Below are positions 12,904 to 51,878 of a stretch of 56,914 nucleotides of DNA, in pieces; the first letter of the stretch is position 1; the number at the start of each line of letters is the position of its first letter. This DNA is from Solirubrobacteraceae bacterium (GTDB lineage Bacteria; Actinomycetota; Thermoleophilia; Solirubrobacterales; Solirubrobacteraceae). The notes under the pieces were generated by a model. The model saw only the letters and a list, made by a program, of their open reading frames with translations, did no database searches and was not told where the DNA came from. The position numbers and the translations under genes are program-made. The stretch is taken from positions 1 to 56,914 of the forward strand of contig DATFRW010000351.1 in the NCBI GenBank assembly GCA_035262945.1, given 5' to 3'.

Positions 12904-12910
12904 GCGTTTG

Positions 12911-13792: not shown

Positions 13793-13833
13793 AGAACGCT
13801 CCCTTTATTGCGGTCCTTCAGAGGTGCGACGCC

Positions 13834-15068: not shown

Positions 15069-15077
15069 ACCGTCGCA

Positions 15078-15083
15078 TACAAT
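15078..15083 (+). promoter_or_regulatory. Candidate -10 element TACAAT, 9 nt upstream of the hyuA-1 start
   Basis: gcaTACAATgccgcccgcGTG. No SD sequence fits between the -10 and the start, which suggests a leaderless or near-leaderless mRNA. Confidence 0.35.
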
Positions 15084-15092
15084 GCCGCCCGC

Positions 15093-30844: not shown

Positions 30845-32580
30845 TCGAACTGCGGCACCTCGCCACGGTCCTGCGCCATGCGCGCGCGCAGCTCGCCGGT
30901 CGCCCGTTCGTCCACGCCGTTGCCGTCGAGCACGACGCCGTAGTCGCGCTCGGACGACTCGCGCGAGACCAACCCGCGGTTGACGTCGCGCAGGACCTCC
31001 TCCGCCGGCCGCTCGAGGGGGTCGCCCCACCCCCCGGCCCCGGCGGTGCGGAAGACGAGGCGGTCGCCGGCCTGCACGGGGTGGGCGTCGACCTTTGAGG
31101 GCAGCTCGATCTCGGTGCCGTCGGCCTTGATCAGCAGCTTGTGGCTGCGCCCGCCGGCACGGCCACCGCCGATCCCCCATGGACTGATCAGCGCGCGATC
31201 GTCGTGGACGGTGAACTCGCCCGGCCCCGTGAAGACGTAGAGCTTCTCGATGCCCGTTCCGCCGCGGTGCAGCCCGGCGCCACCGGAGTCACGGACGGGG
31301 ATGTAGTGGTCGATGCGGACGGGGTAGTAGGACTCGGTGTACTCGGAGGGCGTGGTGCGGAACATCGGCCACCACGAGTGGCCGTCCAGGCCGTCGGCGA
31401 TCGGGCGGCCGGGGATCCCGCCGAAGAGCAACTCGACGAACTGGAAGTAGCGCCCATGCTCGTCGGTGCCCGAGAACACGAACGCGGGGCTCGTGCCGTA
31501 GCCGGCGGCCATCGCCAGGTCCGGGGCCTTCTGCCCCAGCGCCCCGCTCTGGCAGTCGAAGAAGCGCGTGTGCGTGTTGACGCGGTTGGAGAGCGGCGCC
31601 GGGAAGCGCGGGTTCAGCAGCGAGCCCTCCGGCAGGGTGACCTCGAAGACGTCGTAGAGCCCGTCGTTGAACAGGATCTGCGGATCGAAGGCCATGATCA
31701 TGTAGATCCCGAAGAACAGCTTGCAGAGGCCCTCATTGATGTGGAAGTTGATCGATCCGGGAGCCTGGTCGGACGTCCCCGTCCAGTCGACGTGGCAGAC
31801 GTCGCCGTCGCGCCAGATCGTCAGCACCATCTTGAACGGGCCGTTGCCCAGGCCGTCGTCGTCGACCCAGTCGGTGAAGCTGACGCGCTCCTCGGGGATG
31901 TACTGGTGGATGAGGCGCACCATCGCGTCGCGCGTGCGCGTGAGCAGCGCGTCGCAGGCGGCCGAGAAGGTCGCGCGCCCGAAGCGCTCGCAGATCTCCA
32001 CCACGCGGCGCTCGGCCGCGCGGCAGCCGCCGATGAGCGCCATGAGGTCGGAGCGGTTGACGATCGGCGTGCGCGTGTTGTTGAGGATGATCTGCAGCGC
32101 GGTCTCGTTGAGCACGCCGCCCTCGAAGATCTTCACGGGCGGGATCCGCAGGCCCTCCTCCCAGATCGACAGCGCCTCGTTGACCTGGCTGCCGGCGACC
32201 TTGCCGCCGACGTCCATCATGTGGCCGAACATCGAGGCGAAGCCGACGTGCACGCCCTCGTGGAAGATCGGCAGGATCACCAGCCAGTCGTTGCAGTGCG
32301 AGATCGACCCCTTGCACAGGTAGGGGTCGTTGAGCAGGACGACGTCGCCCTCCTCGATGCGCCCCTCGAAGCGCTCGATCACCTCGGGGATGTAGGAGCC
32401 GAACTGCCCGACGATCATCTGCCCGCGCTCGTTGCAGATCATCGGGAACTCGTCGTGCTGCACCCGGATGGTGGGCGACATCGCGGCGCGGCGCACCACC
32501 TCATCCATCTCGAAACGCGCGTTGATGAGCGCGTTCTCGATGAGGTCGAGCGTGATCGGATCCACGGCGGTCTGCGTCAT
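30808..32580 (-). CDS. hyuB: Hydantoinase B family, B subunit (pair 3; divergent subclass)
   Basis: 590 aa from MTQTAVDPITLDLIENALINARFEMD. NDPYLCKGSISHCNDW and AGGWGDP are present. ATGA overlap with hyuA-3. The 3' end overlaps hyuB-2 by 37 nt. Confidence 0.9.
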   Translation of the reverse strand: MTQTAVDPITLDLIENALINARFEMDEVVRRAAMSPTIRVQHDEFPMICNERGQMIVGQFGSYIPEVIERFEGRIEEGDVVLLNDPYLCKGSISHCNDWLVILPIFHEGVHVGFASMFGHMMDVGGKVAGSQVNEALSIWEEGLRIPPVKIFEGGVLNETALQIILNNTRTPIVNRSDLMALIGGCRAAERRVVEICERFGRATFSAACDALLTRTRDAMVRLIHQYIPEERVSFTDWVDDDGLGNGPFKMVLTIWRDGDVCHVDWTGTSDQAPGSINFHINEGLCKLFFGIYMIMAFDPQILFNDGLYDVFEVTLPEGSLLNPRFPAPLSNRVNTHTRFFDCQSGALGQKAPDLAMAAGYGTSPAFVFSGTDEHGRYFQFVELLFGGIPGRPIADGLDGHSWWPMFRTTPSEYTESYYPVRIDHYIPVRDSGGAGLHRGGTGIEKLYVFTGPGEFTVHDDRALISPWGIGGGRAGGRSHKLLIKADGTEIELPSKVDAHPVQAGDRLVFRTAGAGGWGDPLERPAEEVLRDVNRGLVSRESSERDYGVVLDGNGVDERATGELRARMAQDRGEVPQFDYGVLPEGVTVG

Positions 32581-34628
32581 GTGGCCTCCGGTGCGATGAG
32601 CAGATTGAGGTAGGGGTCGACGGTGGCTACGTGCCCCGGCAAGACGATCGTCGTGGCGTCGTACTGCTCGACGATCGCGTAGCCCTCGATGCGAGCGCCC
32701 GCGTGCAGCTGCGCGCGCGAATAGGTGGGGACCTCCTGCGCCACTCCGCCCGCCCACACCGTGTGCGTGCCCGACTGCGCCGCCGACGGGTCGGCCGGCC
32801 CGGGATCGTGGCGCGGGATCTGCGGCGAGCGCGTGCCGCCCTGCGCGACCGCCCGCAGGCTCACGATCTCGGCGCCGCTGGGCAGCCGGAAGCCATAGAG
32901 GCGCTCGTGCACGACGTTGAACCGCTCGGTGAGTGCCTCGAGTGTCAGGTCGGGGAGCTCCCCGGCGCCGACGTCGATCGGGATCTCGAAGCCCTGGCGC
33001 TGGTAGCGCGTGTCGACGACGTAGTCGACGCGGCGGTCGGCGTCCGCCACCCGCTCGCCGGCGAGCCATTCGTCGGCCAGCCCGGCCAGTGCGCCCAGAC
33101 GCGCACGCAGCTCGTCGGCGTCGGTGTCCTCGGCGTCGCGGATGAAGGTCTCGCTGAACTCGTTCTTGATCTCGGCGGCCACGAAGCCCAGCGCCGAGAG
33201 CACGCCCGACTCGGGCGGCACGAGGACCGGGAAGCAGCCCAGCAGCGCGGCCAGCGCGTTGGCGTGCAGCCCGCCCGCGCCGCCGAACGACACGAGCGCA
33301 AACTCGCTGGGCGGTAGGCCCTTCTGCACGGTGACCACGCGCAGCGCGCCGAGCATGTTCTCGTTGACGATGTCCACGATCCCGGCGGCCGCCGCGTGCA
33401 CATCGAGGCCCAGCCGCGACGCGATCGCGTCCACCGACGCGTGGGCGGCGTCGACGTCGAGGCCGATCTCGCCGCCCAGCAGCCGGGGCGGCAGATGCCC
33501 CAGCACCACGTTGGCGTCGGTCACGGTGGCCTGGGTGCCCCCGCGCCCGTAGCACGCGGGCCCGGGATCGGCGCCGGCGCTCTGGGGTCCGACCCGCAGC
33601 GCGCCGGTCATGTCGGCGATGTAGGCGATCGAGCCGCCGCCGGCGCCGATGCTCTCGACCTCGACGGATGGCGCGCGCACCGGGAACTCGCCAACGGTTG
33701 TCTCGCGCGTGATGATCGGCTGGCCGCCCGAGCAGGTGGCGACGTCGGTCGACGTGCCGCCCATGTCGAAGGTGAGGATGCGATCGAAGCCCGCGGCGGC
33801 GGCCACGAACGATGCGCCCTTCACGCCGCCGGCCGGGCCGGAGAGCATCGTGTGGACCGGGATCGAGCGCGCGGACTCGAGGCTCATGAGGCCGCCATCG
33901 GACCGGACGACCTGCAGGTCGGCACCGGCGCGCACCTCGTCGAGGCCCGTACGCAGGCTCGAGAGGTAGCGGTCGAGCACGGGCGACACGTAGGCGTTCA
34001 TCACCGTGGTGACCGTGCGCTCGTACTCGCGGAACTCGGGCATGACGTCGCAGGAGATCGACACCGACAGGCCGGGCGCCTCCGCGCGCGCGATCTCGGC
34101 CACCTCGCGCTCGTGCTCGGGGCTCGCGAACGCGTTCATCAGCGACACGGTGAGCGCCTCGACCCCGCGATCGCGCAGGTCGGCGACCGCGGCGCGCGCC
34201 GCGTCGCGGTCGAGCGCGCGCACGACGGTGCCGTCGGCCGCCATCCGCCCGGGCACCTCGCGCGTGTCCTCGTAGTCAGCGATCGGCTCGGGCTTCTCGT
34301 AGATCATCCAGCCGAACAGCGGCCCCGGGGTCCACGCCTCGGCGAGGTGCAGCATCGAGCGCCAGCCCTCGCTGACGATGAGCCCGACGCGAGCACCGCG
34401 CTTCTCGAGCACCGCGTTCGTCGCCACCGTGGTGCCGTGCAGGATCGCGTCCAGTCGCTCGGGCCCCACGTCGGCCAGCCGGCCGATCACGGCGATGCCC
34501 TCGAGCACGCCAACGGACTGGTTCTGGGGCGTGCTCGGCGTCTTGGCCAGCCACACCTCCTCGGACTCCGTGTCGTGCAGCAGCAGGTCGGTGAACGTGC
34601 CCCCGACGTCGATCCCCATCCTCAGCAT
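32577..34628 (-). CDS. hyuA: Hydantoinase/oxoprolinase family, A subunit (pair 3)
   Basis: 683 aa with MGIDVGGTFTDLL, HGTTVATNA, FDMGGTSTD and GAGGGS. Confidence 0.92.
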   Translation of the reverse strand: MLRMGIDVGGTFTDLLLHDTESEEVWLAKTPSTPQNQSVGVLEGIAVIGRLADVGPERLDAILHGTTVATNAVLEKRGARVGLIVSEGWRSMLHLAEAWTPGPLFGWMIYEKPEPIADYEDTREVPGRMAADGTVVRALDRDAARAAVADLRDRGVEALTVSLMNAFASPEHEREVAEIARAEAPGLSVSISCDVMPEFREYERTVTTVMNAYVSPVLDRYLSSLRTGLDEVRAGADLQVVRSDGGLMSLESARSIPVHTMLSGPAGGVKGASFVAAAAGFDRILTFDMGGTSTDVATCSGGQPIITRETTVGEFPVRAPSVEVESIGAGGGSIAYIADMTGALRVGPQSAGADPGPACYGRGGTQATVTDANVVLGHLPPRLLGGEIGLDVDAAHASVDAIASRLGLDVHAAAAGIVDIVNENMLGALRVVTVQKGLPPSEFALVSFGGAGGLHANALAALLGCFPVLVPPESGVLSALGFVAAEIKNEFSETFIRDAEDTDADELRARLGALAGLADEWLAGERVADADRRVDYVVDTRYQRQGFEIPIDVGAGELPDLTLEALTERFNVVHERLYGFRLPSGAEIVSLRAVAQGGTRSPQIPRHDPGPADPSAAQSGTHTVWAGGVAQEVPTYSRAQLHAGARIEGYAIVEQYDATTIVLPGHVATVDPYLNLLIAPEAT

Positions 34629-36638: not shown

Positions 36639-37556
36639 ATGGCGGACATCACCGAGATCCGGCAGCCGGGCAGCTACAGCTACGTGTTCTCGCCCTATCC
36701 GGAGCCGGTGGCGACGGTTGATCCCGGCCAGACCGTGGCGATCCACACCGAGGACGCCTTCGAGGGCCGCATCACGACCGAGCAGGACCTCCCCAGCAAG
36801 GTGCTCGGCTCCTACCTCAACCCGCAGACCGGGCCGATCTACGTCAACGGCGCCGAGCCGGGCGACACGCTTGCGGTCACGATCGAGTCGATCGAGCCGG
36901 CGCGCGACTGGGCCGTGAGCGTCTTCGTCCCGTACTTCGGCGGCCTGACGGCGACGCAGGCCACGCGGTTGCTGCACGACCCGCTGCCCGAGCGCCTCTA
37001 CTTCTACGAGCTACGCGACGGCGTCTTCCGCCACGGCGACCGGCTCGCCATCCCGTGGCGCCCGTTCCTCGGCACGATCGGCACGGCGCCCCAGCTCGAG
37101 GCGGTGTCCGCCCTGACGCCCCACAACCACGGCGGCAACATGGACGTGCGCGACACCTGCCCGGGCAACACCGTCTACCTCCCGGTGCGCGTGCCCGGCG
37201 CGCTCTTCTACACCGGCGACGCCCACGGCAGCCAGGGCGACGGCGAGCTGTGCGGCGTGGCGCTCGAGATCTCGGCGCGGTCGGTCCTGAAGTTCGACCT
37301 GATCAAGGGCCAGGCGATCGACTGGCCGCGCATCGAGTCGCCCAAGAAGCTCATGACGGTGGGCAGCGCGCGCCCCATGGAGGACGCCGCTCGGATCGCC
37401 TATGCCGAGCTCGTCGACTGGCTGGCGGCCGATCACGGCTTCGAACGACTCGATGCTTACCAGCTGCTCACCCAGGCCGGCGAGATGTACGTCGGCAACA
37501 TGGTGGACACGAACTACTCGCTGGTGGCCGGGATCGACAAGAGCTACCTGTCGTAG
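36639..37556 (+). CDS. Acetamidase/formamidase family protein (FmdA/AmdA)
   Basis: 305 aa from MADITEI after GAGGAGG. NPQTGPIYV.GAEPGD.L.V.I and GGNMD....PG..VYLPV...GALF..GD.H..QGDGE are the family pattern. Confidence 0.85.
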   Translation: MADITEIRQPGSYSYVFSPYPEPVATVDPGQTVAIHTEDAFEGRITTEQDLPSKVLGSYLNPQTGPIYVNGAEPGDTLAVTIESIEPARDWAVSVFVPYFGGLTATQATRLLHDPLPERLYFYELRDGVFRHGDRLAIPWRPFLGTIGTAPQLEAVSALTPHNHGGNMDVRDTCPGNTVYLPVRVPGALFYTGDAHGSQGDGELCGVALEISARSVLKFDLIKGQAIDWPRIESPKKLMTVGSARPMEDAARIAYAELVDWLAADHGFERLDAYQLLTQAGEMYVGNMVDTNYSLVAGIDKSYLS

Positions 37557-38467
37557 CCGGCCTCCAGGGCCTGGACGAGGGCCGTCACGGTCTCGCAGAC
37601 CGGGGCGCGCAGCCCGACCGCCCGCGCGCGCGGCCCGATGGCGCCGCTGATGACCGCGACCTCGGTGCGCCGGCGGGCCACGACGTCCTGCAGCATCGAG
37701 GGGCGCGCGCCGGGGATGCGCGTGCCGAAGGCGTGGACGTAGGCGACCGGGTCGTCGAACCCGGGGCGCACGCCGTGCGCCCAGCCGACGTCGTAGGCCT
37801 CCTGCGCGCAGCCGGCGGCGACCGACCACGCCGCGGGATCGTCGAGCACGTCGCCGATCGACATCCCGGTGAGCGCGCAGACGGCGCTGAAGGCGACGTT
37901 GCAGATGAGCTTCTCCCAGACGAGCTTGTTGACGTCGTCGAAGGTGGCGACGGTGAACCCCGCGCCGCGCCAGACGTCGGCCACGCGCTCGATGCGCTCG
38001 CTCACCGGCCCGGCGCGCTCGCCGAGGCGCAGCAGCTCCATGCCGTTGTGGTGCACGTGGCCGGGAGCCTCGATCGAGGCGCCGAAGCCGCCCGCCACGC
38101 CGACCGCCACGGGCTCCTCGCCGAGCGCCGCCACCACGCGCTCGACGCTGCCCAGACCGTTCTGGATCGGCAGGACGACCGTCTCGGGCCCGAGCAGCGG
38201 CGCGGCCGAGCGCGCGGCGTCCTCGACGTCGCCCGCCTTCGTGGCGATGACGACCAGGTCGACCTGCCCCGCGTCGCGCGGGTCGGTGGCGGCCGGCATG
38301 CGCACGACGCGGTCGCCGCTTGCCCCGCTGACGCGCAGGCCGCGTTCGCGAATGGCGTCGATGTGCTCGGCCCACGTGTCGACGGCCCAGACCTCGTTGC
38401 CCGCGTCCGCGAGCAGCGCGGCGTACACCGAGCCCATCGCCCCGGTGCCGACGATCGCGATCCTCAC
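37544..38467 (-). CDS. 2-dehydropantoate 2-reductase family (PanE/ApbA-like ketoacid reductase)
   Basis: 307 aa from GTG (VRIAIVGTGAMGS). KLICNVAFSAV (Lys/Asn) and SMLQDV...RRTEV are present. Last gene of the long operon. Its 3' end overlaps the convergent formamidase gene by 13 nt. Confidence 0.82.
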   Translation of the reverse strand: MRIAIVGTGAMGSVYAALLADAGNEVWAVDTWAEHIDAIRERGLRVSGASGDRVVRMPAATDPRDAGQVDLVVIATKAGDVEDAARSAAPLLGPETVVLPIQNGLGSVERVVAALGEEPVAVGVAGGFGASIEAPGHVHHNGMELLRLGERAGPVSERIERVADVWRGAGFTVATFDDVNKLVWEKLICNVAFSAVCALTGMSIGDVLDDPAAWSVAAGCAQEAYDVGWAHGVRPGFDDPVAYVHAFGTRIPGARPSMLQDVVARRRTEVAVISGAIGPRARAVGLRAPVCETVTALVQALEAGYDR

Positions 38468-38483: not shown

Positions 38484-40148
38484 TCATGCCAGGAAGTAGG
38501 CGCGATTGAGGGGCAGCTCGCCTGCGGGCTCCAGGCGCACGGGCTCGCCGTCGATGCGCACCTCGCGCCGCTCGCCGTCGACCTCGACTGCCGGCGTGGC
38601 GCCGTTGCGCGGCAGGTCGGCCTTGCGGACGGTCCGCGTCCCGCGGACGAGGGCGACCGGTCCACCCCACGCGCCGCGCGCCCGCTCGATCCCGGTCGCC
38701 GCGCTGAACACCGTGGCCAGGTGCGCGGGGCCGGCGCCGGTGCCACCCCAGAGCGCGCCCTGCACGAGCGGCTCGCCAAGGCGGGTGGAGCCGCTGCCCG
38801 ACGCGAGCGGCCCCCACACGGGGAAGCCGCTTTTCAGGATGAGCTGAGGCTTGGCGCCGAAGAACGCCGGGCGCCACAGGACGATGTCGGCGAGCTTGCC
38901 GGGCTCGAGCGAGCCGACCTCGTGGGCGATGCCGTGCACGAGCGCGGGGTTGATCGTCAGCTTGGCGAGGTAGCGCAGGACGCGCTCGTTGGTGCCGTCG
39001 TCGCCCGCGGCGCGCGCCATCACGTGCGCAAGCTGCCAGGTTCGCCGCGTCACCTCGCCGACGCGCCCCATGCCCATGGAATCAGAGCTCATCATGCTGA
39101 TCGCGCCGAGGTCGTGCAGGACCGATTCCGCGGCCATCGTCCACGCGCGGATGCGCCCGCGCGCGGCGGCGGTGTCGAACGGCAGCAGCGGGTTGAGCCG
39201 GTGGACCGTGCGGATCATCTCCTCGTGCTCGGCCACCGCGTTGACGCCGAAGGGCACGGTCGGCGAGGTCGACGAGGGCAGGACATTGTCGTGCGAGACC
39301 GCCTCGAGGAGGTTGACCGGACCGCCGCCGCATCCCTCCACGTGGTAGGCGTGCACGGCCCGGCCGCCGATCGCGGCGAGCGTCTCCTCGAGCGTCGCGG
39401 ACTCCCCCAGCCCGTCGGCGTGCAGCGCCACCTGCATGTCGTGGCGCTCGGCGGCGGCCAAGACGGCATCGACGACCCAGGGGTAGGCACCGACGTCCTC
39501 GTGGACCTTGTAGGCGCCGGCGCCGAGCGCGGCGAGGTCGTCGAGGAAGTCGGCGTTGGCGGTGCTGCCGCGCACGATGGGCAGCAGGTTGATCGGCACC
39601 GCACGCCACGCGCGCAGGATGTTGTCGAGGTTCGCGCGCGGGTTGATGCCCAGGTCGAACGCGCCCGAGTAGCTCATCGCCGCCATCGTGGTCGTCGCGC
39701 CCGCGAGGGCGGCGGGCACGAGCTGCGGGCCGATGAGGTGCACGTGCGAGTCGATCGTCCCGGGCGTGGCGATGAGGCCCTCGCCGGCGACGACGCCGGT
39801 GGCGGCGCTGATCGGGACGGTGACCCCGTCGTCGCGGTCGGGATCCCCGGCGCGGCCGACCGCGGCCACGCGCCCCTCGCGCACCCCGATCGACGTCTTG
39901 CGCACGCCGAGCACCGGATCGACGAGCACGACGTTGGTGACCACGACGTCGAGCGCCTGGTCGAGCGGCCGCTCGCCGGTCGCCATTAGCCCGTCGCGCA
40001 CCGTCTTACCGAAGCCCACCACGGGCTCGTGCCCGGGCCGCCCGTCATCGGCCTCGACCGTCACGAACAGGTCGGTGTCGCCGAGGCGGACGCGGTCGCC
40101 GGTGGTCGGCCCGTACAGCGAGGCGTACTCGGCGCGGGTCAGTCCCAC
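38484..40148 (-). CDS. ureC: Urease alpha subunit (divergent)
   Basis: 554 aa. YGPTTGDRVRLGDT, DSHVHLIGPQ, YKVHED, VALHADGL, HAYHVEG, TVHRL, RGRIR, SSDSMGMGR and TINPA..HGI.HEVGS...GK.AD are all present. The GTG start overlaps ureB by 10 nt. Confidence 0.88.
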   Translation of the reverse strand: MGLTRAEYASLYGPTTGDRVRLGDTDLFVTVEADDGRPGHEPVVGFGKTVRDGLMATGERPLDQALDVVVTNVVLVDPVLGVRKTSIGVREGRVAAVGRAGDPDRDDGVTVPISAATGVVAGEGLIATPGTIDSHVHLIGPQLVPAALAGATTTMAAMSYSGAFDLGINPRANLDNILRAWRAVPINLLPIVRGSTANADFLDDLAALGAGAYKVHEDVGAYPWVVDAVLAAAERHDMQVALHADGLGESATLEETLAAIGGRAVHAYHVEGCGGGPVNLLEAVSHDNVLPSSTSPTVPFGVNAVAEHEEMIRTVHRLNPLLPFDTAAARGRIRAWTMAAESVLHDLGAISMMSSDSMGMGRVGEVTRRTWQLAHVMARAAGDDGTNERVLRYLAKLTINPALVHGIAHEVGSLEPGKLADIVLWRPAFFGAKPQLILKSGFPVWGPLASGSGSTRLGEPLVQGALWGGTGAGPAHLATVFSAATGIERARGAWGGPVALVRGTRTVRKADLPRNGATPAVEVDGERREVRIDGEPVRLEPAGELPLNRAYFLA

Positions 40149-40390
40149 GTGATCTCGAGCTCCCGCGTCGCCCCCGCGGGGATCGCGACACTCGCGCCGG
40201 CGGGCAGGGCGAGCCTGGCCCCCTCGAGGCCCTCGCGCTCGAAGCGCAGCGCCGCGCTGGCCCGGGCCAGGGGGAAGTGGGAGGTCAGGTAGGCGTCGAA
40301 GCGGCCGGTGTTGGTCACCGTGATCTGCCCGCACCGGGCCGCCGCCTGTGGCACCGGCCCGTCGCCCGGGATCACCTCCCCCGGCCTCAT
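40139..40390 (-). CDS. ureB: Urease beta subunit (short, 83 aa)
   Basis: MRPGEV...ITVTNTGRFDAYLTSHF...AALRFERE...G.RLALPAGASVAIPAG.TRE aligns to the UreB core. ATGA overlap with ureA. Confidence 0.8.
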   Translation of the reverse strand: MRPGEVIPGDGPVPQAAARCGQITVTNTGRFDAYLTSHFPLARASAALRFEREGLEGARLALPAGASVAIPAGATRELEITWD

Positions 40391-40695
40391 CGCGCCACGA
40401 GCCCTTCGAGCGGCACCAGCCGGCTGCCGTCGCCGAACGTCGCCTCGACCTGCAGCGGCGCGTCGAGCAGCTCGGCGACGCCGGGCTCGAGCTGCTCGCG
40501 GGCGAACAGGCCGCGCACGCAGCCGCGCACCTCGTCGAATCCGGCGCCGGCCCGCGCGCGCTCGAGCGCGACGTCGCACGCCATCGCCACGCAGTCGGGG
40601 TGGCTGAGCCGGATCCCCTCGCGCAGCCGGCGCCGCGCGAGCTCGGCCGCGGTGAAGATCAGCAGGCGCTCGGTCTCGCGAGGCGAGAGCTGCAT
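40387..40695 (-). CDS. ureA: Urease gamma subunit
   Basis: 102 aa. MQLSPRETERLLIFTAAELARRRL.EG..L..P..VA......E.AR.G...QVEATF.DGS.LV matches UreA. The start overlaps the upstream stop (TGATG). Confidence 0.88.
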   Translation of the reverse strand: MQLSPRETERLLIFTAAELARRRLREGIRLSHPDCVAMACDVALERARAGAGFDEVRGCVRGLFAREQLEPGVAELLDAPLQVEATFGDGSRLVPLEGLVAR

Positions 40696-42056
40696 CACGC
40701 GGCGACCGGCGCCACCGCGGAGAGGTACTCCCCGTCGCCCGGCTGCCCGGTGACCTCGCCCTCGGCGTAGATGATCCGGCCGCGCAGGACCGTGTACATC
40801 GGGTAGACGCGCAGCTCGTAGCCGTCGAACGGCGACCACTTCTCCTGGTCGTGGTACTCGAGGTCGCGTGCGTCGAGCGTGCGCCGGCCGTTGGTCTCGA
40901 CGACGGCGAAGTCGGCGTCGGCGCCCAGCGCGATCTCGCCCTTGCGCGGGCCGAGCCCGAAGATGTGCGCCGGGTTGGACGACACGAGGCGGGCGATGCG
41001 CGTGATGGGGATGTCGCGGCGGTGCAGCGCCTCGGTGGCGAACACCGGGAAGAAGACCTCGACCCCGTTGCCCGACCCGGGCGCCTGCGCCCAGATGTCC
41101 TCGGCCACTGTCTTGGGCAGCGGCGCGTGGTCGGAGCCGACGGAGTGCACCTTGCCGCCCGCCACCAGCCGCCACAGCCAGTCCACCGACGCGCGCTCGC
41201 GCGTGGGCGGGTTCCACTTCAGCCGGATGTCGGAGACCGAGTCCTCCTTGGTGGTGCACAGGTAGTGGTGGCAGGTCTCGGCCCACGCGTCGGCGCCGCG
41301 GGCCCGGGCGGCGGCGATCGCCTCGACCGTCTGCGGCGAGCTGGCGTGCGCCACCACGACGCGGGCGCCGGTGACCTCGGCGAGCAGGGCGACGTTCTGG
41401 GCGGCCGCGACCTCGCTGTACCACGGGCGCGCGTCGTCCCACGCGGCGAGGTCCTTGCGGCCCGCGGCCATCAGGCGCTCGGTCTCCCAGTCGACGATCT
41501 GGGCGTTCTCGCAGTGCACCGTCGTGACGCGCCCGAGCGCCGCGGCCCGGCGGAGCGCGTCGAGCGTCTGGCCCTCGTCGACGCCGGGGTACATCCCGGG
41601 CGGCGCCACGCCGCCGGTGAAGAGCTTGAAGGCGGCGGCGCCGAGGTCGGCCATCGCAGTCATCTGGTCGGGGTCCTCGGCGAGGTAGCCGCCGAAGCAG
41701 GCGTAGTCGACGTGGCAGCTGTCGCGGATCGCGTCGAGCTTGTCGCGCAGCGTGTCCGCCGTGAGCGTCGGCGGCTTGTCGAGCGGCATGTCGACCACCG
41801 TCGTCACCCCGCCCTTGGCCGCCGCCCGCGTCGCGCCCTCGTACGTCTCCCAGCCGTAGCCGCGGAAGCAGTGGAAGTGCTCGTCGATGACTCCGGGCAT
41901 CACCGTCAGCCCCGTGGCGTCGATCGTCTCGTCGGCGTCGATGGCGGCGTCGGAGATCAGCGCGACGCGTCCGTCGCTGACGCCGATGTTGACCTTGACC
42001 ACGTCGTCGCCCAGGACGACGTCGCCATTGAGGATCGCCAGGTCGAGATGCGTCAC
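40695..42056 (-). CDS. Allantoinase/dihydroorotase-like cyclic amidohydrolase
   Basis: 453 aa from GTG (VTHLDLAILNG). GVIDEHFH (HxH), AAFKLF (Lys), TVHCEN, VVAHASS and VGSDHAP are present. GTGA overlap with the upstream gene. Confidence 0.85.
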   Translation of the reverse strand: MTHLDLAILNGDVVLGDDVVKVNIGVSDGRVALISDAAIDADETIDATGLTVMPGVIDEHFHCFRGYGWETYEGATRAAAKGGVTTVVDMPLDKPPTLTADTLRDKLDAIRDSCHVDYACFGGYLAEDPDQMTAMADLGAAAFKLFTGGVAPPGMYPGVDEGQTLDALRRAAALGRVTTVHCENAQIVDWETERLMAAGRKDLAAWDDARPWYSEVAAAQNVALLAEVTGARVVVAHASSPQTVEAIAAARARGADAWAETCHHYLCTTKEDSVSDIRLKWNPPTRERASVDWLWRLVAGGKVHSVGSDHAPLPKTVAEDIWAQAPGSGNGVEVFFPVFATEALHRRDIPITRIARLVSSNPAHIFGLGPRKGEIALGADADFAVVETNGRRTLDARDLEYHDQEKWSPFDGYELRVYPMYTVLRGRIIYAEGEVTGQPGDGEYLSAVAPVAA

Positions 42057-43015
42057 GTTGTCCTCCCGGATGTCGTCGCCGGCGGCAGCACGAGGTCGAC
42101 CGGGCGCCCCTCGCAGAAGGCGAGGATCGCGTCGGTCATGCCCGAGAACTGGCGCTCGAGCGTTTCCTGGGTCAGCCAGGCGATGTGTGGCGTGATGATG
42201 AGGTTGGGCACTGCGGCGAGGCTGCGCGCGCGCTCGGCTTCCAGCGGCTCGCCCTCGACCACGTCGAGGCAGGCGCCCCCGAGGTGGCCGGCCGCGAGCA
42301 GGTCGCAGAGCGCCTCGGTGTCGACGATCTCGCCGCGCGCGGTGTTGACCAGCCAGGCGCCGGGGCGCATCGACTCGAGGCGGTCGCGGTCCAGCAGCCG
42401 GTGCGTCTCGGGAGTGAGCGCGACGTTGACCGAGACGGCATCGCTGCGGCGCAGCAGCTCGTCGAGGTCGACGCGCTCGACGCCCTCCGGGCGCACGTCG
42501 CTGCGCGACCAGCCGAGGACCTGCATGCCCACCGCGCGCGCGAGCGCCGCCACGCGCCGGCCGATCGAGCCCAGCCCGATCACCCCGAGCGTGTGGCCGG
42601 CGAGGTCGGCGCCGATGAAGCCGGTGAACTCCCAGCGCCCCGCGGCGGTCGACGCGGCCGCTTCGGCCAGCCGCCGGCGCCCCATCATCAGCATGCCGAG
42701 CGTGTACTCGGCAACCGAGGCGATGGGTGCCGTCGGGACCGTGACGACTCCCACGCCGCGGCGCGCAGCCGCTTCGACGGCGATGTGCGAGTAGCCGGCC
42801 GTGCGCGTGGCGACCAGCTCGAGACCCGGCAGCCGCGCGATCACGTCCTCGGTGATCGGCGTGTAGGTGTAGAGCGCGGCCAGCACGGTCGCGCCCTGCG
42901 CCCGCTCGACCACGTCGTCGGCGCTCGCGGGCCCGCGTGCGATCCGCGTCGGCAGCGATGCGGCGAGACGTGCCAGCCGTGGCTCGTCGGGCTCGAGGCA
43001 GTCGACCACCGCCAC
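42053..43015 (-). CDS. D-isomer-specific 2-hydroxyacid dehydrogenase (NAD-binding)
   Basis: About 320 aa. GVIGLGSIGRRVA, NTARGEIVD, LDVVEGEP and ITPHIAW give the R-E-H triad. The GTG start (43015 or 43009) is uncertain. Confidence 0.82.
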   Translation of the reverse strand: MAVVDCLEPDEPRLARLAASLPTRIARGPASADDVVERAQGATVLAALYTYTPITEDVIARLPGLELVATRTAGYSHIAVEAAARRGVGVVTVPTAPIASVAEYTLGMLMMGRRRLAEAAASTAAGRWEFTGFIGADLAGHTLGVIGLGSIGRRVAALARAVGMQVLGWSRSDVRPEGVERVDLDELLRRSDAVSVNVALTPETHRLLDRDRLESMRPGAWLVNTARGEIVDTEALCDLLAAGHLGGACLDVVEGEPLEAERARSLAAVPNLIITPHIAWLTQETLERQFSGMTDAILAFCEGRPVDLVLPPATTSGRTT

Positions 43016-43038
43016 GAGGTGGGTCCCGGGCGCGGCGC

Positions 43039-43944
43039 TCAACCCTCGGTGCCGGCGGCGACGAACGGGCCGGCGCGGTGCAGCAGCCCGGGCACGTCGT
43101 GGCGCAACTCGCCGGCCAGCCAGTCGGCGATCGCGATGAGCGCGTCGAGGTCCAGGCCACTGTCCACGCCCTCGCCGTCGAGGAGGTAGACGAGGTCCTC
43201 GGTGGCGATGTTTCCGGTCGCGCGCGGCGCGAACGGGCACCCGCCGATCCCGCCGATCGACGCGTCGAGCAGCGTGGCGCCGTGCTCGAGGCCGGTGATC
43301 GCGTTGGCGTAGCCCGTGTTGCGGGTGTTGTGCAGATGCAGCCCGACCGGCGCGCCGCCGGCGGCCTCCAGCGCGGCGGGCACGAGACGGCGCACCTGCG
43401 CGGGCACGGCCACGCCGATCGTGTCGGCGAGCATGATCTCGTCCACGCCGGCCCCGGCCATGCGCCTGACGTGCTCGATGACCACGCCGGGGTCGACCGG
43501 CCCCTCGAAGGGGCAGCCGAACGAGGCGCCCAGCGTCGCGGTCACCTTCGCGCCGGCCTCGCGCCCCTCGGCGATGAGCTCCTCGGTCCCGCTGGCCGCC
43601 TCCTCGAGCGTCATGCCCTGGTTGCGCTCGGCGAAGGTGTCGGTCACCGGGTAGGCGAGGTGGATCTCCTTCACGCCGGCGGCCAGCGCGCGATCGACGC
43701 CGCGCCGGTTGAGCGCGAGCGCCGCGAAGCTCACGTCGTCGCGAGCCTCGATCGCGTCGAAGACCTCCTCGACCCCGGCCATCTGAGGCACGCGCTTGGG
43801 GTTGACGAAGCTGCCGGCCTCGACGCGCCGCAGCCCCGCGTCGGCGAGGCGCACGCACAACTCGGCGCGCACCTGCGGCGCGAGGGTCGTGACGTCGTTC
43901 TGCAGGCCGTCGCGCGGCCCGACGTCGCAGATGACGATCTCCAT
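43039..43944 (-). CDS. Hydroxymethylglutaryl-CoA lyase family (HMGL-like)
   Basis: 301 aa with DVGPRDGLQN, HLHNTRNTGYAN and GGIGGCPFAPRATGNIATEDL. Confidence 0.88.
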   Translation of the reverse strand: MEIVICDVGPRDGLQNDVTTLAPQVRAELCVRLADAGLRRVEAGSFVNPKRVPQMAGVEEVFDAIEARDDVSFAALALNRRGVDRALAAGVKEIHLAYPVTDTFAERNQGMTLEEAASGTEELIAEGREAGAKVTATLGASFGCPFEGPVDPGVVIEHVRRMAGAGVDEIMLADTIGVAVPAQVRRLVPAALEAAGGAPVGLHLHNTRNTGYANAITGLEHGATLLDASIGGIGGCPFAPRATGNIATEDLVYLLDGEGVDSGLDLDALIAIADWLAGELRHDVPGLLHRAGPFVAAGTEG

Positions 43945-43947
43945 GCC

Positions 43948-45843
43948 TCAGCCTCCCGCGCGGGTCTCCTTGTTCATCCAGGCGTCGAAGTCGCGCCGCT
44001 CCTGGGCGATGCGGGCGGCGAGCTGCTCCTTCTCGGGCAGCGGCCCGAAGTCGAACTCGGACGGCTCGGCGCGCTCGGCCATCGCCTTCTCGCGCAGCGC
44101 CGTCGTGGCGCTCTCGTCGATCTCGCCGCGCGCGGAGACAACCACGCCGTACTGGTCCCGGGCCGCGTCGACGGTCACGAGCCCGGCCCGCACATCGGCC
44201 GCGACGCGCTCGGGCTCGCGGGTGAGGGGATCGCCGAGGCCGCCGGCGCCCGCGGTCGAGAAGATCAGCTGGTCGCCCTTGTGGACCGGGACGTTCTCGA
44301 CCTTCGAGGGCAGGCGCAGCTCCTCGCCGTCCGCGGCGCGAATCAGGCGCTTCTCCGAGGGCTCGCCGTGGCGCGCGCCCTGCAGGCCCCACGGGAAGGT
44401 CTGGCTGCGGTCGTCCTGGTAGGAGATGAAGCCGTCCTCGAGGAAGCGGTAGACCTTGTCGACGCCGTGGCCGCCGCGGTGGTAGCCCGCGCCGCCGGAA
44501 TCTGCGCGCGCCCTGTAGGCCTCCACACGCAGGGGGTAGTACTTCTCGAGGTACTCGGTCGGCACTGCCTTGAACAGCGGCCACCACGAGTGCCCGTCGA
44601 GGCCGTCGGCGAACGGCCGCGCGGGGATGCCGCCATAGAGGATCTCCAGGATCTGGTACGGGTTGCCGGCCGCGTCGGTGCCCGAGTACACGAAATTCGG
44701 GCTGGTGCCGTAGCTGCCCGAGACGGCGAAGTCCTCCAGCGCCTTGGAGAAGACGGCGTCGACGACGTCGAACTGGCGCGCCATCAGGCTCAGGCGGTTG
44801 CCCAGCGGCGCCGGGAACTGCGGCCGCAGCGCGCACCCGTCGGGGATCGTCACCTCGATCAGGTCGTAGTAGCCGTCGTTGAACACGAGGTCCGGAGCGA
44901 AGGCCATGATGAGGAAGACCCCGGCGAACATCTTGAACATCTCGTGGTTGAGCAGGAAGTTCACCGAGCCCGGCACCGCCGGGTCTGTCCCGGTCCAGTC
45001 GAGATGTAGGCGGTCGCCCTCGCGCCACATGGCGAGCTTGAGCTTGATCGGGCCGTGGCCGAGCCCGTCGTCGTCGGCGTGGTCCTCGAACTCGAAGCGC
45101 TCGCCGTCCGGCAGGTGGGTGCGGATGAGCTCGATGAGCCCGCCCCGCGTGCGATCGAGGATCGCGTCGCAGGCCTCGAGGTAGGTGTCGCGGCCGAAGC
45201 GGTCGCACAGCTCGAGCACCCGCGCGGCGCCCGCGGCCGTGCCCGCCGCGATCGCCTTGATGTCGGCCTCGACCTCCTTGGGCAGCCGGGTGTTGTGGCA
45301 GAAGAGGTGCAGGACCTCCTCGTTGAGCCGCCCCTGGTCGTAGAGCTTCAGCGGCGGCATCCGCACGCCCTCGTAGTAGATGCTGCGCGCGCTGATGGGC
45401 ATGGAGCCGGCGGCGGTGCCGCCCACGTCCATGAGGTTCCCCCACTGCGATGCGTAGCCGACCATCACGTCCTCGTGGAAGATCGGCCGCAGGATCATGA
45501 AGTCGGGCGTGTGCGAGATCGACCCCTCGCACATATAGGGGTCGTTCAGCGCGATGACGTCACCGTCGCGGAGGTCGTCGACGGTGTACGGCGAGTGGTC
45601 GAGGATCGTCTGGATCGCGCTGCCGAACTGGCCGATGACCATGCGGCCCTGCCGGTCGGCGATGAGCGGAAACTGGTCGGACTGCTCGCGGATGACCGGG
45701 CTGACCGCGGTGGTCTCGAGGACGCGGTCCATCTCGTAGCGCGTGTTCGAGAGCGTGTTCTCGATGATGTCGAGCGTGATCGGGTCGATGTCGTGCTCGC
45801 GCACGAAGTCCGGCAGCTGCCGCCCGGTCTCGATGCTGGTCAT
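43948..45843 (-). CDS. hyuB: Hydantoinase B family, B subunit (pair 4; same subclass as pair 3)
   Basis: 631 aa from MTSIETG. DPITLDIIENTLSNTRYEMD, NDPYMCEGSISHTPDF and AGGLGDP are present. ATGA overlap with hyuA-4. Confidence 0.9.
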   Translation of the reverse strand: MTSIETGRQLPDFVREHDIDPITLDIIENTLSNTRYEMDRVLETTAVSPVIREQSDQFPLIADRQGRMVIGQFGSAIQTILDHSPYTVDDLRDGDVIALNDPYMCEGSISHTPDFMILRPIFHEDVMVGYASQWGNLMDVGGTAAGSMPISARSIYYEGVRMPPLKLYDQGRLNEEVLHLFCHNTRLPKEVEADIKAIAAGTAAGAARVLELCDRFGRDTYLEACDAILDRTRGGLIELIRTHLPDGERFEFEDHADDDGLGHGPIKLKLAMWREGDRLHLDWTGTDPAVPGSVNFLLNHEMFKMFAGVFLIMAFAPDLVFNDGYYDLIEVTIPDGCALRPQFPAPLGNRLSLMARQFDVVDAVFSKALEDFAVSGSYGTSPNFVYSGTDAAGNPYQILEILYGGIPARPFADGLDGHSWWPLFKAVPTEYLEKYYPLRVEAYRARADSGGAGYHRGGHGVDKVYRFLEDGFISYQDDRSQTFPWGLQGARHGEPSEKRLIRAADGEELRLPSKVENVPVHKGDQLIFSTAGAGGLGDPLTREPERVAADVRAGLVTVDAARDQYGVVVSARGEIDESATTALREKAMAERAEPSEFDFGPLPEKEQLAARIAQERRDFDAWMNKETRAGG

Positions 45844-47897
45844 CGGCTGCCCTCCAGCCCGCGGATGATGAGATTGCCGTAGCCGTCGACCTTGGCACCG
45901 TAGCCCGGCTCGATGACCGTGGTGGCGTCCTGCTGGATCACGATCGCCGGCCCGGAGATCGAGTCGCCGGCGTTCAGGGCGTCGCGGTCGTAGATCCCGG
46001 TCGGACGCCACTCGCCTTCGAAGAAGACCTGCTCCTGGCGCTGTGGTCGCGCCTCGGAGCCGCTGGCGTCGTCCGCGGCGGTCACGACCCCGTCGGCACT
46101 GGCGCTGGCGCCGACCACGCGCACCGTGGCGATCTCGATCGGCGCGCTGAGGTCGAAGCCGTAGCGGCGCCGGTGCTCGTCCTCGAACTGCTCCCGCACG
46201 CGGGCGGCGAAGCTCTCGTCGACGGCGCCGGGATCGAGCTCGCAGGGGATCTGGATGTCCTGCATCGCGTAGCGGCAGTCGGCATAGAACGAGAACGAGC
46301 GCCGGGAGTCGTCCACCCCCTCGCGCTCGAGCCAGTCGGCCGCCTCGGAGCGCAGCTCCGAGAGGACCCCGGAGAGGTCGGAGGCCGGCGTGTCCTCGGC
46401 GATCTTCAGGTAGGTGCGCGCGAACTCGTTCTGCACCTCGGCGACCTGGAAGCCGAACGCGCTGAGCACGCCGGGCGTCGCCGGGATGACGACCGGATCG
46501 GCGTGAATGAGCCGGCCGAGCGCGTTGGCATGCAGCGGGCCGGCGCCGCCGAAGGCGATGAGGCCGAACTCGCGCGGGTCGAAGCCGCGCTCGATGCTCA
46601 CGACGCGAAGCGCGGCGTGCATGTTCTCGTTGGCAATGTCAACGATCGCCTGGGCCGCCTGCGTGATGTCGACGCCGAGGCCGTCGGCGACCTTGCCGAC
46701 CGCGCGCTTGGCGGCCTCCTCGTCGATCTCCAGGGCGCCGGCGAGCAGCGTGCTCGGTGGGATCCGGTGCAGCACGACGTTGGCGTCGGTGACCGTCGGC
46801 TGGTCGCCGCCGCGCCCGTACGCCGCGGGGCCGGGCTCGGCGCCCGCGCTCTGGGGCCCGACGCGCAGCGCGCCGACCGGCGTGAGGTAGGCGATGGAGC
46901 CGCCGCCGGCGCCCACGCTGTGGACGTCCACGCCGCGCGACTGGAACTGGTAGTAGCCCAACTGGGCCTCGCGCTTGATCGTCACCGCGCCGTCGACGCA
47001 GATCGAGACGTCGGTCGAGGTGCCGCCGACGTCGAGCGTGAGCACGTTCGGCGCGCCGATGCGGCGCGCGAGGTAGGCGGCTCCGACCACGCCGCCCGAC
47101 GGCCCCGAGAAGGCGGTGTCGACCGGGCGCTCCTTGGTGGACCGCGTGCTCATCGTGCCGCCGTCGGAGCGCACCACGCCGAGGCGGTTGGCGAACCCGA
47201 CCTCGCGCAGGACGCGCTCGAGGCCGTCGACGTAGCGGATCACCTGCGGCTGCGCGTAGGCGTTGAGCACCGCGGTCAGCGTCCGTTCGTACTCGCGGTA
47301 CTCCGACACGAGGTCCGAGGAGATCGAGATCGGCAGCTCGGGATGCGCCCCGCGAGCGATGTCGCGGGCGCGGCGCTCGTGCGCAGGGTTGACGTAGGAG
47401 TTCAGGAAGCCGACCGTGACCGACTGCACGCCCTCGGCGATGAGCTCGTCGATGGCGCGGCGCACCTCGTCCTCGTCGAGCTCCTCCACGACGGACCCGT
47501 CGGCGGCGATGCGGCCGGTGATCCCGCGGGTGTTCCACAGCTCGACCAGCGGTGGCGGCTTGATCATGCCCATCCAGCCGTACAGCGGGCCGGGCGTCCA
47601 CGCGCGCGCGAGATGCAGGATCTGCTCGTTGCCGCGCGTGGTCAGCAGGCCGCCGGTGGCGCCCTTGCTTTCGAGGATGAGGTTGGTGACGACGGTGCTG
47701 CCGTGGAGGATGAGCTCGAGGTCGCTCGGCTGCGCCCCGACGCGATCGCAGGCCTCCTTGACGCCGGCGATGACGCCGACCGACTGGTCCTCGGGCGTCG
47801 ACAGCACCTTGACCAGGGTGATCTCCCCGGAAGCCGTGTCCTGCATCTGGACGTCGGTGAACGTCCCACCAACATCAACGCCCAAGCGGTACCCCAT
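45840..47897 (-). CDS. hyuA: Hydantoinase/oxoprolinase family, A subunit (pair 4)
   Basis: 685 aa from MGYRLGVDVGGTFTDV after GGAGG. HGSTVVTN, LDVGGTSTD and GAGGGS are present. Confidence 0.92.
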   Translation of the reverse strand: MGYRLGVDVGGTFTDVQMQDTASGEITLVKVLSTPEDQSVGVIAGVKEACDRVGAQPSDLELILHGSTVVTNLILESKGATGGLLTTRGNEQILHLARAWTPGPLYGWMGMIKPPPLVELWNTRGITGRIAADGSVVEELDEDEVRRAIDELIAEGVQSVTVGFLNSYVNPAHERRARDIARGAHPELPISISSDLVSEYREYERTLTAVLNAYAQPQVIRYVDGLERVLREVGFANRLGVVRSDGGTMSTRSTKERPVDTAFSGPSGGVVGAAYLARRIGAPNVLTLDVGGTSTDVSICVDGAVTIKREAQLGYYQFQSRGVDVHSVGAGGGSIAYLTPVGALRVGPQSAGAEPGPAAYGRGGDQPTVTDANVVLHRIPPSTLLAGALEIDEEAAKRAVGKVADGLGVDITQAAQAIVDIANENMHAALRVVSIERGFDPREFGLIAFGGAGPLHANALGRLIHADPVVIPATPGVLSAFGFQVAEVQNEFARTYLKIAEDTPASDLSGVLSELRSEAADWLEREGVDDSRRSFSFYADCRYAMQDIQIPCELDPGAVDESFAARVREQFEDEHRRRYGFDLSAPIEIATVRVVGASASADGVVTAADDASGSEARPQRQEQVFFEGEWRPTGIYDRDALNAGDSISGPAIVIQQDATTVIEPGYGAKVDGYGNLIIRGLEGSR

Positions 47898-51874: not shown

Positions 51875-51878
51875 GGCG

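Follow-up and report, generated by a model that had tools for sequence, protein, structure and literature searches.

A divergent urease-like gene trio in a hydantoinase/allantoinase-type operon of Thermoleophilia

The nickel ureases (EC 3.5.1.5) of Klebsiella aerogenes and Sporosarcina pasteurii are built from three subunits encoded in the order gamma-beta-alpha (UreABC). Three subunits in the same order are encoded by a urease-like gene trio, here designated ureA', ureB' and ureC', that is located on a 57-kb stretch of DNA from a Solirubrobacteraceae bacterium (contig DATFRW010000351.1, positions 1 to 56,914; the entire stretch is referred to as the window) and that is the subject of this contribution. 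The trio differs from the K. aerogenes and S. pasteurii systems in the absence of linked ureDEFG genes, in a beta subunit that is shorter by ~25 residues and in its setting in a hydantoinase/allantoinase operon. Orphan urease structural genes as such are already known from Bacillus subtilis and Streptomyces. In B. subtilis the regulator PucR controls the allantoin genes and ureABC; the urease of this species has a canonical sequence, and its genes show no translational fusion to a hydantoinase operon, both unlike ureA'B'C'. It is like the present trio in that only structural genes exist, and it is a precedent for accessory-free maturation, as active urease without accessory genes was described for B. 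subtilis according to the citation of Kim et al. (2005) in PMC2770081.

Closer in sequence is a group of non-canonical ureases. The second urease clusters of Streptomyces consist of ure(AB)C alone (PMC2492869, 2008); the proteins of S. coelicolor and S. avermitilis (SCO5525-5526, SAV2715) together with non-canonical ureases of Chloroflexota and Actinomycetota are 52-55% identical to UreC'. They share with it a short 160s loop (GxWDxGxNP), a TVHR flap and an xGMGR segment, but have kept the histidine of the GGGH motif and Asn251, and their UreAB is full-length and often fused. Helicobacter mustelae UreA2B2, an iron urease (3QGA), is a second, accessory-independent paralogue beside a canonical Ni urease, a situation resembling that of one relative of our trio (locus L007, see below); it differs by an identity of 38%, by a full-length beta domain (3qga_A, a 225-aa beta-gamma fusion), by its phylum and by its physiology. 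Outside the urease family the hyu system of Arthrobacter aurescens has to be considered, in which the gene order is that of an L-hydantoinase (HyuH) and an M20 N-carbamoylase (HyuC). HyuH (1GKR) is the best solved relative of the product of the gene 5' of ureA'. If our trio acts on a ureido acid, an alternative that is weighed below, both systems would have the same architecture of a ring-opener and, behind it, an enzyme for the removal of the ureido group; the second position, however, is taken by a urease-family heterotrimer and not by a carbamoylase of the M20 or CN-hydrolase type.

It is firmly established, as far as sequences allow, that the trio is intact, is maintained by selection and would encode a two-metal heterotrimer of the urease family that belongs to a distinct Thermoleophilia lineage; its operonic tie to the catabolism of cyclic ureides or lactams is likewise firmly established, as is the absence of linked accessory genes from the window. 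All three genes are located on the minus strand: ureA' (40387-40695) for a urease gamma-like subunit of 102 aa (Pfam Urease_gamma, 86.7 bits), ureB' (40139-40390) for a C-terminally truncated beta-like subunit of 83 aa (Urease_beta, 43.4 bits) and ureC' (38484-40148, GTG start) for an alpha-like catalytic subunit of 554 aa with the domains Urease_alpha (PF00449, 124.9 bits) and Amidohydro_1 (PF01979, 150.2 bits). ureA' and ureB' overlap by 4 nt, ureB' and ureC' by 10 nt, and the ATG of ureA' has 1 nt in common with the stop codon of the amidohydrolase gene upstream of it. An earlier note on this DNA, made without database searches, had described three coupled subunits of precisely these lengths and a UreB without its C-terminal segment, and both descriptions hold: UreB' aligns only to residues 3-81 of K. 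aerogenes UreB (101/106 aa), so that the last ~25 residues are missing, and it matches the Pfam profile weakly at positions 1-79 of 98. With 83 aa it falls short of a full-length beta subunit (~100-106 aa), and the length is 81-87 aa across all loci of the clade described below. ureC' exceeds the cut-off of the NCBIfam subfamily PRK13207 (625 > 354) alone. The 49 genes of the window (G+C ~72%) were called with a codon-usage model, and Pfam domains came from three scans and from the existing annotation of a public contig that is nearly identical to the window; an open reading frame (ORF) cut by the window end (56522-56914) received no Pfam scan and was covered by tblastn only. The public contig in question (L001, ERZ27257142 k141_3090478) is the nearest one available, and several of its neighbouring proteins are 99.1-99.8% identical, not identical, to those of the window. 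As its coordinate offsets do not match either, the window must stem from another, closely related assembly. The nearest public copy of UreC' (P0001) is one residue off (Met55 in the window, Leu in P0001).

A search of 5.8 billion proteins yielded ~80 clusters (P0001-P0081) that are 63-100% identical to UreC', and the next step down is at 55%. Named members of this clade are Baekduia soli (complete genome CP042430.1) and the metagenome-assembled genomes (MAGs) of a Gaiellaceae member and of an 'Actinomycetes' member; a genome scan added MAGs of Thermoleophilaceae, Solirubrobacterales, Thermoleophilia and Gaiellales. The ureA' copies of clade loci are 64-94% identical to that of the window. In a bootstrapped neighbour-joining (NJ) tree of full-length sequences the clade was recovered in 100/100 and the canonical ureases, apart from it, in 99/100 replicates; a placement inside ordinary ureases, which the earlier note had named as an argument against its own proposal, was thus not found. 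A small sister group (P0082/84/86/90/93/115) was also recovered in 100/100 replicates, the union of clade and sister group in just 55/100. Clade members have a mean identity of 70% to each other; the corresponding means are 55% with the sister group, 52% with the remaining non-canonical ureases and 43% with canonical ones. Pairwise ratios of non-synonymous to synonymous substitution rates (dN/dS) against three relatives were 0.15-0.40 for ureA', ureB' and ureC' (0.18-0.40 for ureB'), indicative of purifying selection, and ureB' and ureC' are fused in three clusters (P0029, P0047, P0048). These values and fusions indicate that the genes, the short ureB' included, are maintained by selection. 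Literature searches for non-canonical, atypical or urease-like enzymes, for the urease phenotype of B. soli and for the function of SCO5525/5526 returned no paper on this clade or on the function of non-canonical ureases. Within the literature searched, the lineage, its fixed GGGP/N251G signature, the truncated UreB' and the conserved tie to a module of L-hydantoinase/allantoinase and dehydrogenase therefore appear to be new.

UreC' is 43% identical to K. aerogenes UreC, the residue numbering of which is used here on the basis of a HMMER pairwise alignment and a 150-sequence MAFFT table. The metal ligands His134 and His136 (DSHVHL), Lys217, which is the carbamylated lysine (YKVHED), His246 (LHADG), His272 (YHVEG) and Asp360 (SSDSMGMGR) are all the same in both proteins, and so are the catalytic and substrate-polarising residues His219 and Asp221 (YKVHED), His320 (TVHRL) and Arg336 (GRIR). 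Across the alignment rows of all ~80 clade clusters none of these six ligands varies, nor do His219, Asp221, His320 and Arg336. The retention of Ni ligands and catalytic residues, proposed in the earlier note, is borne out in both alignments for every residue that it named. The note had also pointed to two departures. Both are real: the EGAGGGHAPD block reads EGCGGGP-VNL in UreC', equivalent to a replacement of His280 by Pro plus the deletion of one residue, and Cys319 is Val. The latter exchange, however, is not specific for this gene, as C319V is distributed over the whole non-canonical radiation in our motif table.

The changes were scored in 78 clade, 6 sister, 32 other non-canonical, 10 'large-deletion' and 12 canonical sequences. 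Residue 280 is proline in 78/78 clade and 6/6 sister sequences and histidine in the 54/54 other ureases. The possibility that the GGGHAPD substitution is common and neutral, raised in the earlier note, is ruled out by this fixation in one lineage (78/78 clade, 6/6 sister, 0/54 others). Confined to the clade are G254A and A276C, while N251G, H280P and the deletion of residue 281 are found in clade and sister group. The exchanges G156A/G157M, T169G, V318T, H321R, F332A and A363G occur in the whole non-canonical radiation, including the Streptomyces and Chloroflexota proteins, and so does the deletion of residues 161-163 and 173, by which the 160s loop becomes 4 residues shorter (GxFDxGxNP). GGGP-VNL, N251G, A276C, C319V, H321R, F332A, A363G and the shorter 160s loop all set UreC' apart from the K. 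aerogenes and S. pasteurii enzymes. In the structures of these two ureases the carbonyl oxygens of Ala167, Gly277 and Ala363 form hydrogen bonds with the amino groups of urea. The changes therefore fall into, or next to, all three substrate-contacting segments and the flap. To judge from the alignments, the residues that perform the chemistry are untouched while the loops predicted to contact the substrate, and the flap, are remodelled.

An AlphaFold2 model of UreC' had a pLDDT (predicted local distance difference test) of 89.6 and a pTM (predicted template modelling score) of 0.93, and superposition gave template modelling (TM) scores of 0.95 with K. aerogenes UreC (1FWG_C) and of 0.93 with the H. 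mustelae Fe-urease 3QGA. The architecture of an alpha subunit, i.e. a Urease_alpha N-terminal domain, a (beta/alpha)8 amidohydrolase barrel and a flap, is present according to Pfam and the model; the helix-turn-helix of the flap is kept, with predicted helices at 304-315 and 323-331. Weaker blocks of the model comprise residues 41-50, 161-170, 271-280 and 451-460, and two of these four correspond to remodelled loops.

The trio is part of a 13-gene co-directional array on the minus strand that runs from 53066 to 37544 with gaps of no more than 31 nt. At its head is a CUT2-type ABC importer (49176-53066) with a binding protein (51879-53066; Pfam Peripla_BP_4), a double ATPase (50231-51874; ABC_tran x2) and a permease (49176-50231; BPD_transp_2). 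It is followed by a family III CoA-transferase (47929-49179; CoA_transf_3), for which CoA:oxalate CoA-transferase is the best NCBIfam match but below cut-off, by an ATP-dependent hydantoinase/lactamase pair (HydA 45840-47897, HydB 43948-45843; Hydantoinase_A/B) with caprolactamase alpha/beta as the nearest named family, again under the cut-off, by a gene resembling 3-hydroxy-3-methylglutaryl-CoA (HMG-CoA) lyase (43039-43944; NF004283, 272.7 > 246) and by a D-2-hydroxyacid dehydrogenase of the glyoxylate/hydroxypyruvate reductase-like type (42053-43042; 2-Hacid_dh), the best match of which in the PDB is 2CUK, a glycerate dehydrogenase/glyoxylate reductase. Next comes the cyclic amidohydrolase (40695-42056, 453 aa) to which ureA' is translationally coupled. 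Its matches place it clearly within the L-hydantoinase/allantoinase subgroup: it scored 326.5 with the NCBIfam allantoinase TIGR03178 (cut-off 357.85) and 296.7 with the hydantoin-5-propionate amidohydrolase ErtD, and in the PDB the Arthrobacter L-hydantoinase 1GKR (256 bits) was ahead of E. coli allantoinase (246 bits). The last gene, after ureC', codes for an ApbA/PanE-family 2-oxoacid reductase (37544-38467; TIGR00745, 241.9 > 141). Convergent to the operon, on the plus strand, is an FmdA/AmdA-family amidase gene (36639-37556; Pfam FmdA_AmdA). It adjoins also in L003, L005 and L006, where it is 85-88% identical (ureC' of these genomes: 75-82%). It is always found near the trio and may be part of the same pathway.

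The arrangement is conserved. Among 14 informative clade loci, with the window counted and L071, which was retrieved via the amidohydrolase itself, excluded, the cyclic amidohydrolase gene is immediately 5' of ureA' in 11. The triplet of dehydrogenase, cyclic amidohydrolase and ureA'B'C' is found in the window, in B. soli and in L003-L006, L035, L038, L040, L042 and L059 (also in L071), and the dehydrogenase is kept 5' of the amidohydrolase in the window, L002-L006, L035, L038, L042 and L071. The junction of the amidohydrolase gene with ureA' usually amounts to 0-2 nt, as in the window, B. soli, L035 and L038. The ApbA/PanE reductase is located 3' of ureC' also in L003 and L040, the HMG-CoA-lyase-like gene recurs near the module in L005, L006, L035, L038 and L071, and HydA/B genes are present within 10 kb of the trio in most clade loci. 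HydA/B pairs, isochorismatase-family amidases, HMG-CoA-lyase-like genes, CoA-transferases and acyl-CoA dehydrogenases are recurrent around the module. The three loci without an amidohydrolase neighbour are the deep-branching L036 and L037 and the Gaiellales MAG locus L007. In L036 and L037 the order is ABC importer, ureA'B'C', isochorismatase, fused HydAB, isochorismatase, OCD and DAO, and the importer directly 5' of ureA' is of the same type as in the window. Conversely, a 67%-identical orthologue of the ring-opener is present without urease-like genes at 6001-7365 of two metagenome contigs of the Joint Genome Institute (L072/L073); there it is preceded by an NAD_binding_2 dehydrogenase instead of 2-Hacid_dh, with HydB and isochorismatase genes on the 5' side. 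The ring-opener thus occurs without the trio, and together with the three clade loci that lack the amidohydrolase this rules out an obligate coupling of the two. In B. soli a PucR-type regulator is located upstream of the locus. The thiamine pyrophosphate (TPP) enzyme upstream in the same organism was tried as a glyoxylate carboligase or oxalyl-CoA decarboxylase and rejected: its best named matches are PRK07064, a model for a TPP-binding protein (340 bits), and 5-guanidino-2-oxopentanoate decarboxylase (334 bits), and as both are below cut-off there is no clean allantoin signature.

The earlier note had stated that no gene resembling ureD, ureE, ureF or ureG occurs in the 57 kb, which proved correct: no UreD/E/F/G domain was found by Pfam among the predicted genes of the window, and tblastn of the window with K. 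aerogenes UreG and with Thermoleophilia UreG/D/E/F returned no match. Within +/-6-10 kb of the trio no UreD/E/F/G was found in 13/14 clade loci either. The designation as orphan therefore holds for the window but not for the whole clade, as L007 (Gaiellales MAG CAYTCZ010000073.1) has a complete canonical ure(AB)-ureC-ureG-ureD-ureE-ureF cluster at 13468-18490, only 1.8 kb 3' of ureA'B'C'. It is the sole clade locus with ureG/D/E/F nearby, and these genes are part of that canonical cluster. The order in L007 is amidase, enoyl-CoA hydratase, CoA-transferase, ureA'B'C', M28 peptidase and the canonical cluster, the M28 peptidase gene being the only one between the two ureases. The accessory proteins could here act in trans on the divergent urease.

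With about as much confidence as doubt, we prefer the reading that ureA'B'C' is a true urease that is dedicated to a ureide pathway and is matured without dedicated UreDEFG proteins. The 13-gene operon, in which the trio would be transcribed together with the ring-opener and the dehydrogenase, would then serve in the uptake and catabolism of a cyclic ureide or lactam, and ureA'B'C', with a two-metal centre bridged by a carbamylated lysine, would liberate two molecules of ammonia from urea or from a urea moiety released by the pathway. As in the standard urease mechanism, the metal-bridging hydroxide would attack the carbonyl carbon; His219, Asp221 and Arg336 would polarise the substrate, and His320 on the flap would serve as the acid. 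The metal would be acquired without dedicated UreD/E/F/G, either spontaneously as in B. subtilis or from a canonical cluster at another place in the genome. UreB, with its hinge, takes part in the docking of UreD and in access to the site, and the degenerate, truncated UreB' could be the consequence of a subunit that is no longer needed in an activation complex. This reading is supported by the invariant catalytic residues, the confidently predicted urease fold, the purifying selection and the retention of a three-subunit unit. The precedents of B. subtilis and of the Streptomyces clusters, the PucR-type regulator of the B. soli locus and the fact that, to our knowledge, all described ureases act physiologically on urea are further points in its favour.

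The contexts of related proteins also bear on a function in urea hydrolysis. One locus of the sister group, with GGGP and a full-length UreB, is located beside an arginase-family gene, two CN-hydrolases and an amino-acid permease, and arginase is a urea producer. Neighbours of the orphan ure(AB)C of Streptomyces are a PucR-like regulator, a major facilitator superfamily transporter, a TPP decarboxylase and a gene of the aminobutyraldehyde-dehydrogenase subfamily (one locus). The Streptomyces TPP enzyme passes only the generic PRK08199 (721 > 539); 5-guanidino-2-oxopentanoate decarboxylase is a secondary match that stays under its cut-off (232 < 500), therefore a urea-yielding guanidino pathway is only weakly hinted at. 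The arginase context and, more weakly, the Streptomyces context, at one locus each, are compatible with urea as the substrate, and the GGGP change alone need therefore not abolish urease activity.

Several observations nevertheless weigh against a urease that acts on urea. All three subunits score below the NCBIfam equivalog cut-offs, ureA' with 90.1 < 123, ureB' with 46 < 129 and ureC' below every equivalog of its family (e.g. TIGR01792, 535.5 < 680). All three segments that contact urea in the solved enzymes (the Ala167 loop, the Gly277 loop and the Ala363 segment) are altered in the alignments, and the flap signature, a pattern of the PROSITE UREASE_2 type, matched 10/12 canonical but 0/126 non-canonical sequences (0/78 in the clade). 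Neither in the conserved module nor elsewhere in the 57-kb window did domain and family scans detect an arginase, allantoicase, ureidoglycolate lyase or creatinase, and hence no urea-generating enzyme is seen in the window. If both of the neighbouring enzymes of L007 acted on urea, one of them would be superfluous. Finally, in classical hydantoinase operons the gene at the position of ureA' is that of an N-carbamoylase, and it is this position that ureA' occupies.

These points lead to an alternative that we regard as possible, though tentative, namely that UreA'B'C' is a neofunctionalised enzyme of the urease fold that cleaves the ureido (N-carbamoyl) group of the linear product of the adjacent ring-opener. 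Allantoate, ureidoglycolate, oxalurate or an N-carbamoyl acid would be candidate substrates, the role would be that of a carbamoylase or allantoate amidohydrolase, and the 2-hydroxyacid dehydrogenase would then handle the resulting (hydroxy/oxo) acid. The tight coupling to the ring-opener and its adjacency in most informative loci are what one would expect in this case. No M20 or CN-hydrolase carbamoylase or allantoate amidohydrolase was found in the module, ureA'B'C' being in that position, though a separate HydA/HydB operon in the window has an M20 enzyme. The changes of pocket and flap (N251G, G254A, A276C, H280P with its deletion, the 160s-loop deletion, H321R, F332A and A363G) would fit a substrate other than urea, and the proximity of a full canonical urease in L007 points in the same direction. 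The ring-opener orthologue without the trio is accompanied by an isochorismatase-family amidase and HydB, which is compatible with a non-orthologous displacement of the ureido-hydrolase step; the same orthologue, however, also demonstrates that the ring-opener can do without the trio, and L036, L037 and L007 demonstrate the reverse. Most of the pocket changes are common to the wider non-canonical radiation, which is found in urea-compatible contexts, and the catalytic and substrate-polarising residues are unchanged. We know of no report of a urease-family enzyme whose physiological substrate is anything but urea, so that the proposal is without precedent in the family. Somewhat more doubtful still is the specific form of this idea in which UreA'B'C' would be a two-metal ureido-acid amidohydrolase that replaces the M20/CN-hydrolase step and assembles its metal centre without UreDEFG.

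An isozyme with iron, manganese or zinc, which like UreA2B2 of H. mustelae would need no nickel chaperones, is unlikely; it is a sub-case of the preferred reading of a urease matured without dedicated accessory proteins, and its probability is counted within that of the latter. It would agree with the lack of linked accessory genes in 13/14 clade loci, with the presence of a canonical Ni-type cluster beside the trio in L007, reminiscent of the two H. mustelae ureases, with the similarity of 3QGA to the model and with the fact that no Ni transporter was seen in the window by Pfam scans. However, the metal ligands are the same as in Ni ureases and give no positive signal for another metal, and UreA2B2 keeps a full-length beta domain, so that the changes of the clade are without counterpart there.

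We consider it very improbable that a COG0523 GTPase replaces UreG and loads the metal, a proposal that concerns the maturation route only and overlaps with the functional readings. The gene (11585-12595, minus strand; Pfam cobW/CobW_C) is, as the earlier note had recognised, the only one for a G3E GTPase, the superfamily of UreG, in the window. It is located 27 kb from the trio in another cluster, beside a polysaccharide-deacetylase-family gene, DUF3891 and an asparaginase fragment, and no COG0523 homologue was present within +/-6-10 kb of the urease-like genes in the 37 other loci compared, about a dozen of them clade loci; a functional link is therefore without support. Genes of the COG0523 type are common and multi-copy, and most of them have been connected with Zn homeostasis or with other targets (PMC2770081). 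Of the two explanations that had been offered in the earlier note, maturation by unlinked or non-canonical factors and a urea-like intermediate as the substrate, both are thus still alive and have become sharper, whereas the part that concerned the COG0523 protein has not stood up. That the trio is a decaying or non-catalytic paralogue, as the truncated, weakly scoring UreB' and the sub-cut-off scores of all subunits might suggest, is effectively refuted by intact reading frames, ligands invariant in ~80 clusters, dN/dS values of 0.15-0.40 and a translational coupling and operon position that are conserved across Thermoleophilia orders.

The operon is embedded in a larger catabolic island, which in the window comprises four HydA/HydB pairs, three amidohydrolases of the hydantoinase/allantoinase type, two isochorismatases, an FmdA-type amidase and one M20 enzyme. 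The four pairs, of the ATP-dependent hydantoinase/oxoprolinase/caprolactamase type, are located at 15093-18883 and 26973-30844 on the plus strand and at 30808-34628 and 43948-47897 on the minus strand. Four pairs in 33 kb represent an unusual density of lactam/hydantoin ring-openers; two of the pairs are convergent with overlapping 3' ends (29042-30844 and 30808-32580). The M20 gene, for an allantoate amidohydrolase/N-carbamoylase (18880-20112, plus strand; NF006771, 408 > 399), follows a HydA/HydB pair and not a cyclic amidohydrolase, and is itself followed by a tartronate-semialdehyde-reductase-like gene and a luciferase-like monooxygenase. By gene content, this HydA/HydB pair and the M20 gene represent a predicted classical hydantoinase-carbamoylase module in the same island. 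A protein of 690 aa (8524-10596, minus strand) is a fusion of an HpcH/HpaI domain (citrate-lyase-beta/malyl-CoA-lyase-like) and a family III CoA-transferase; its gene adjoins an IclR regulator, a cyclase-family gene and an isochorismatase gene, and partial homologues recur near the urease-like trio in L003, L004 and L007. Directly 3' of the COG0523 gene is an ORF of 69 aa (11352-11561, minus strand) whose match to the asparaginase N-terminal domain is confined to positions 36-97 and which is probably a gene remnant. The G+C content dips to 0.66 at 12000-14000 (~0.72 elsewhere), and the polysaccharide-deacetylase-family gene at 12911-13792 has an atypical codon-position composition (GC1 0.59, GC2 0.40). 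This gene was rejected as a PuuE allantoinase (74 bits, cut-off 425).

Note that a second family of urease-alpha-like proteins was encountered in Actinomycetota MAGs (L009-L016, L018-L020, L022, L024, L026-L027). It is characterised by a deletion of ~10 residues in the 160s loop (E----EP), by a flap that reads VHGGS or VHEGN and by a conserved GGGH, and no UreG was found within the flanks of these loci. It appears to be another uncharacterised radiation of orphan ureases.

Ureases are treated as a strictly mono-functional, chaperone-dependent family of Ni enzymes, and soil metagenomics employs ureC as a marker gene of ureolysis. The present lineage is coherent and widespread in Thermoleophilia; it has kept the catalytic core, while the substrate-contacting loops and the flap are remodelled and UreB is degenerate, and it is hard-wired to an operon of the hydantoinase/allantoinase type instead of ureDEFG. 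Baekduia soli, which is cultured, has a complete genome and carries the same module, makes both outcomes directly testable. If the trio is an accessory-free urease, it would be a natural system for the self-assembly of a carbamylated two-metal site and a simpler enzyme to express. If its substrate is a ureido acid, the rule of one family and one substrate would be broken, for the first time, by a urease-family enzyme with a physiological role other than on urea, a missing step of ureide catabolism and with it a new route of ureide-nitrogen release in soil Actinomycetota would be revealed, and some of the 'ureC' reads in soil surveys would not report urea hydrolysis.

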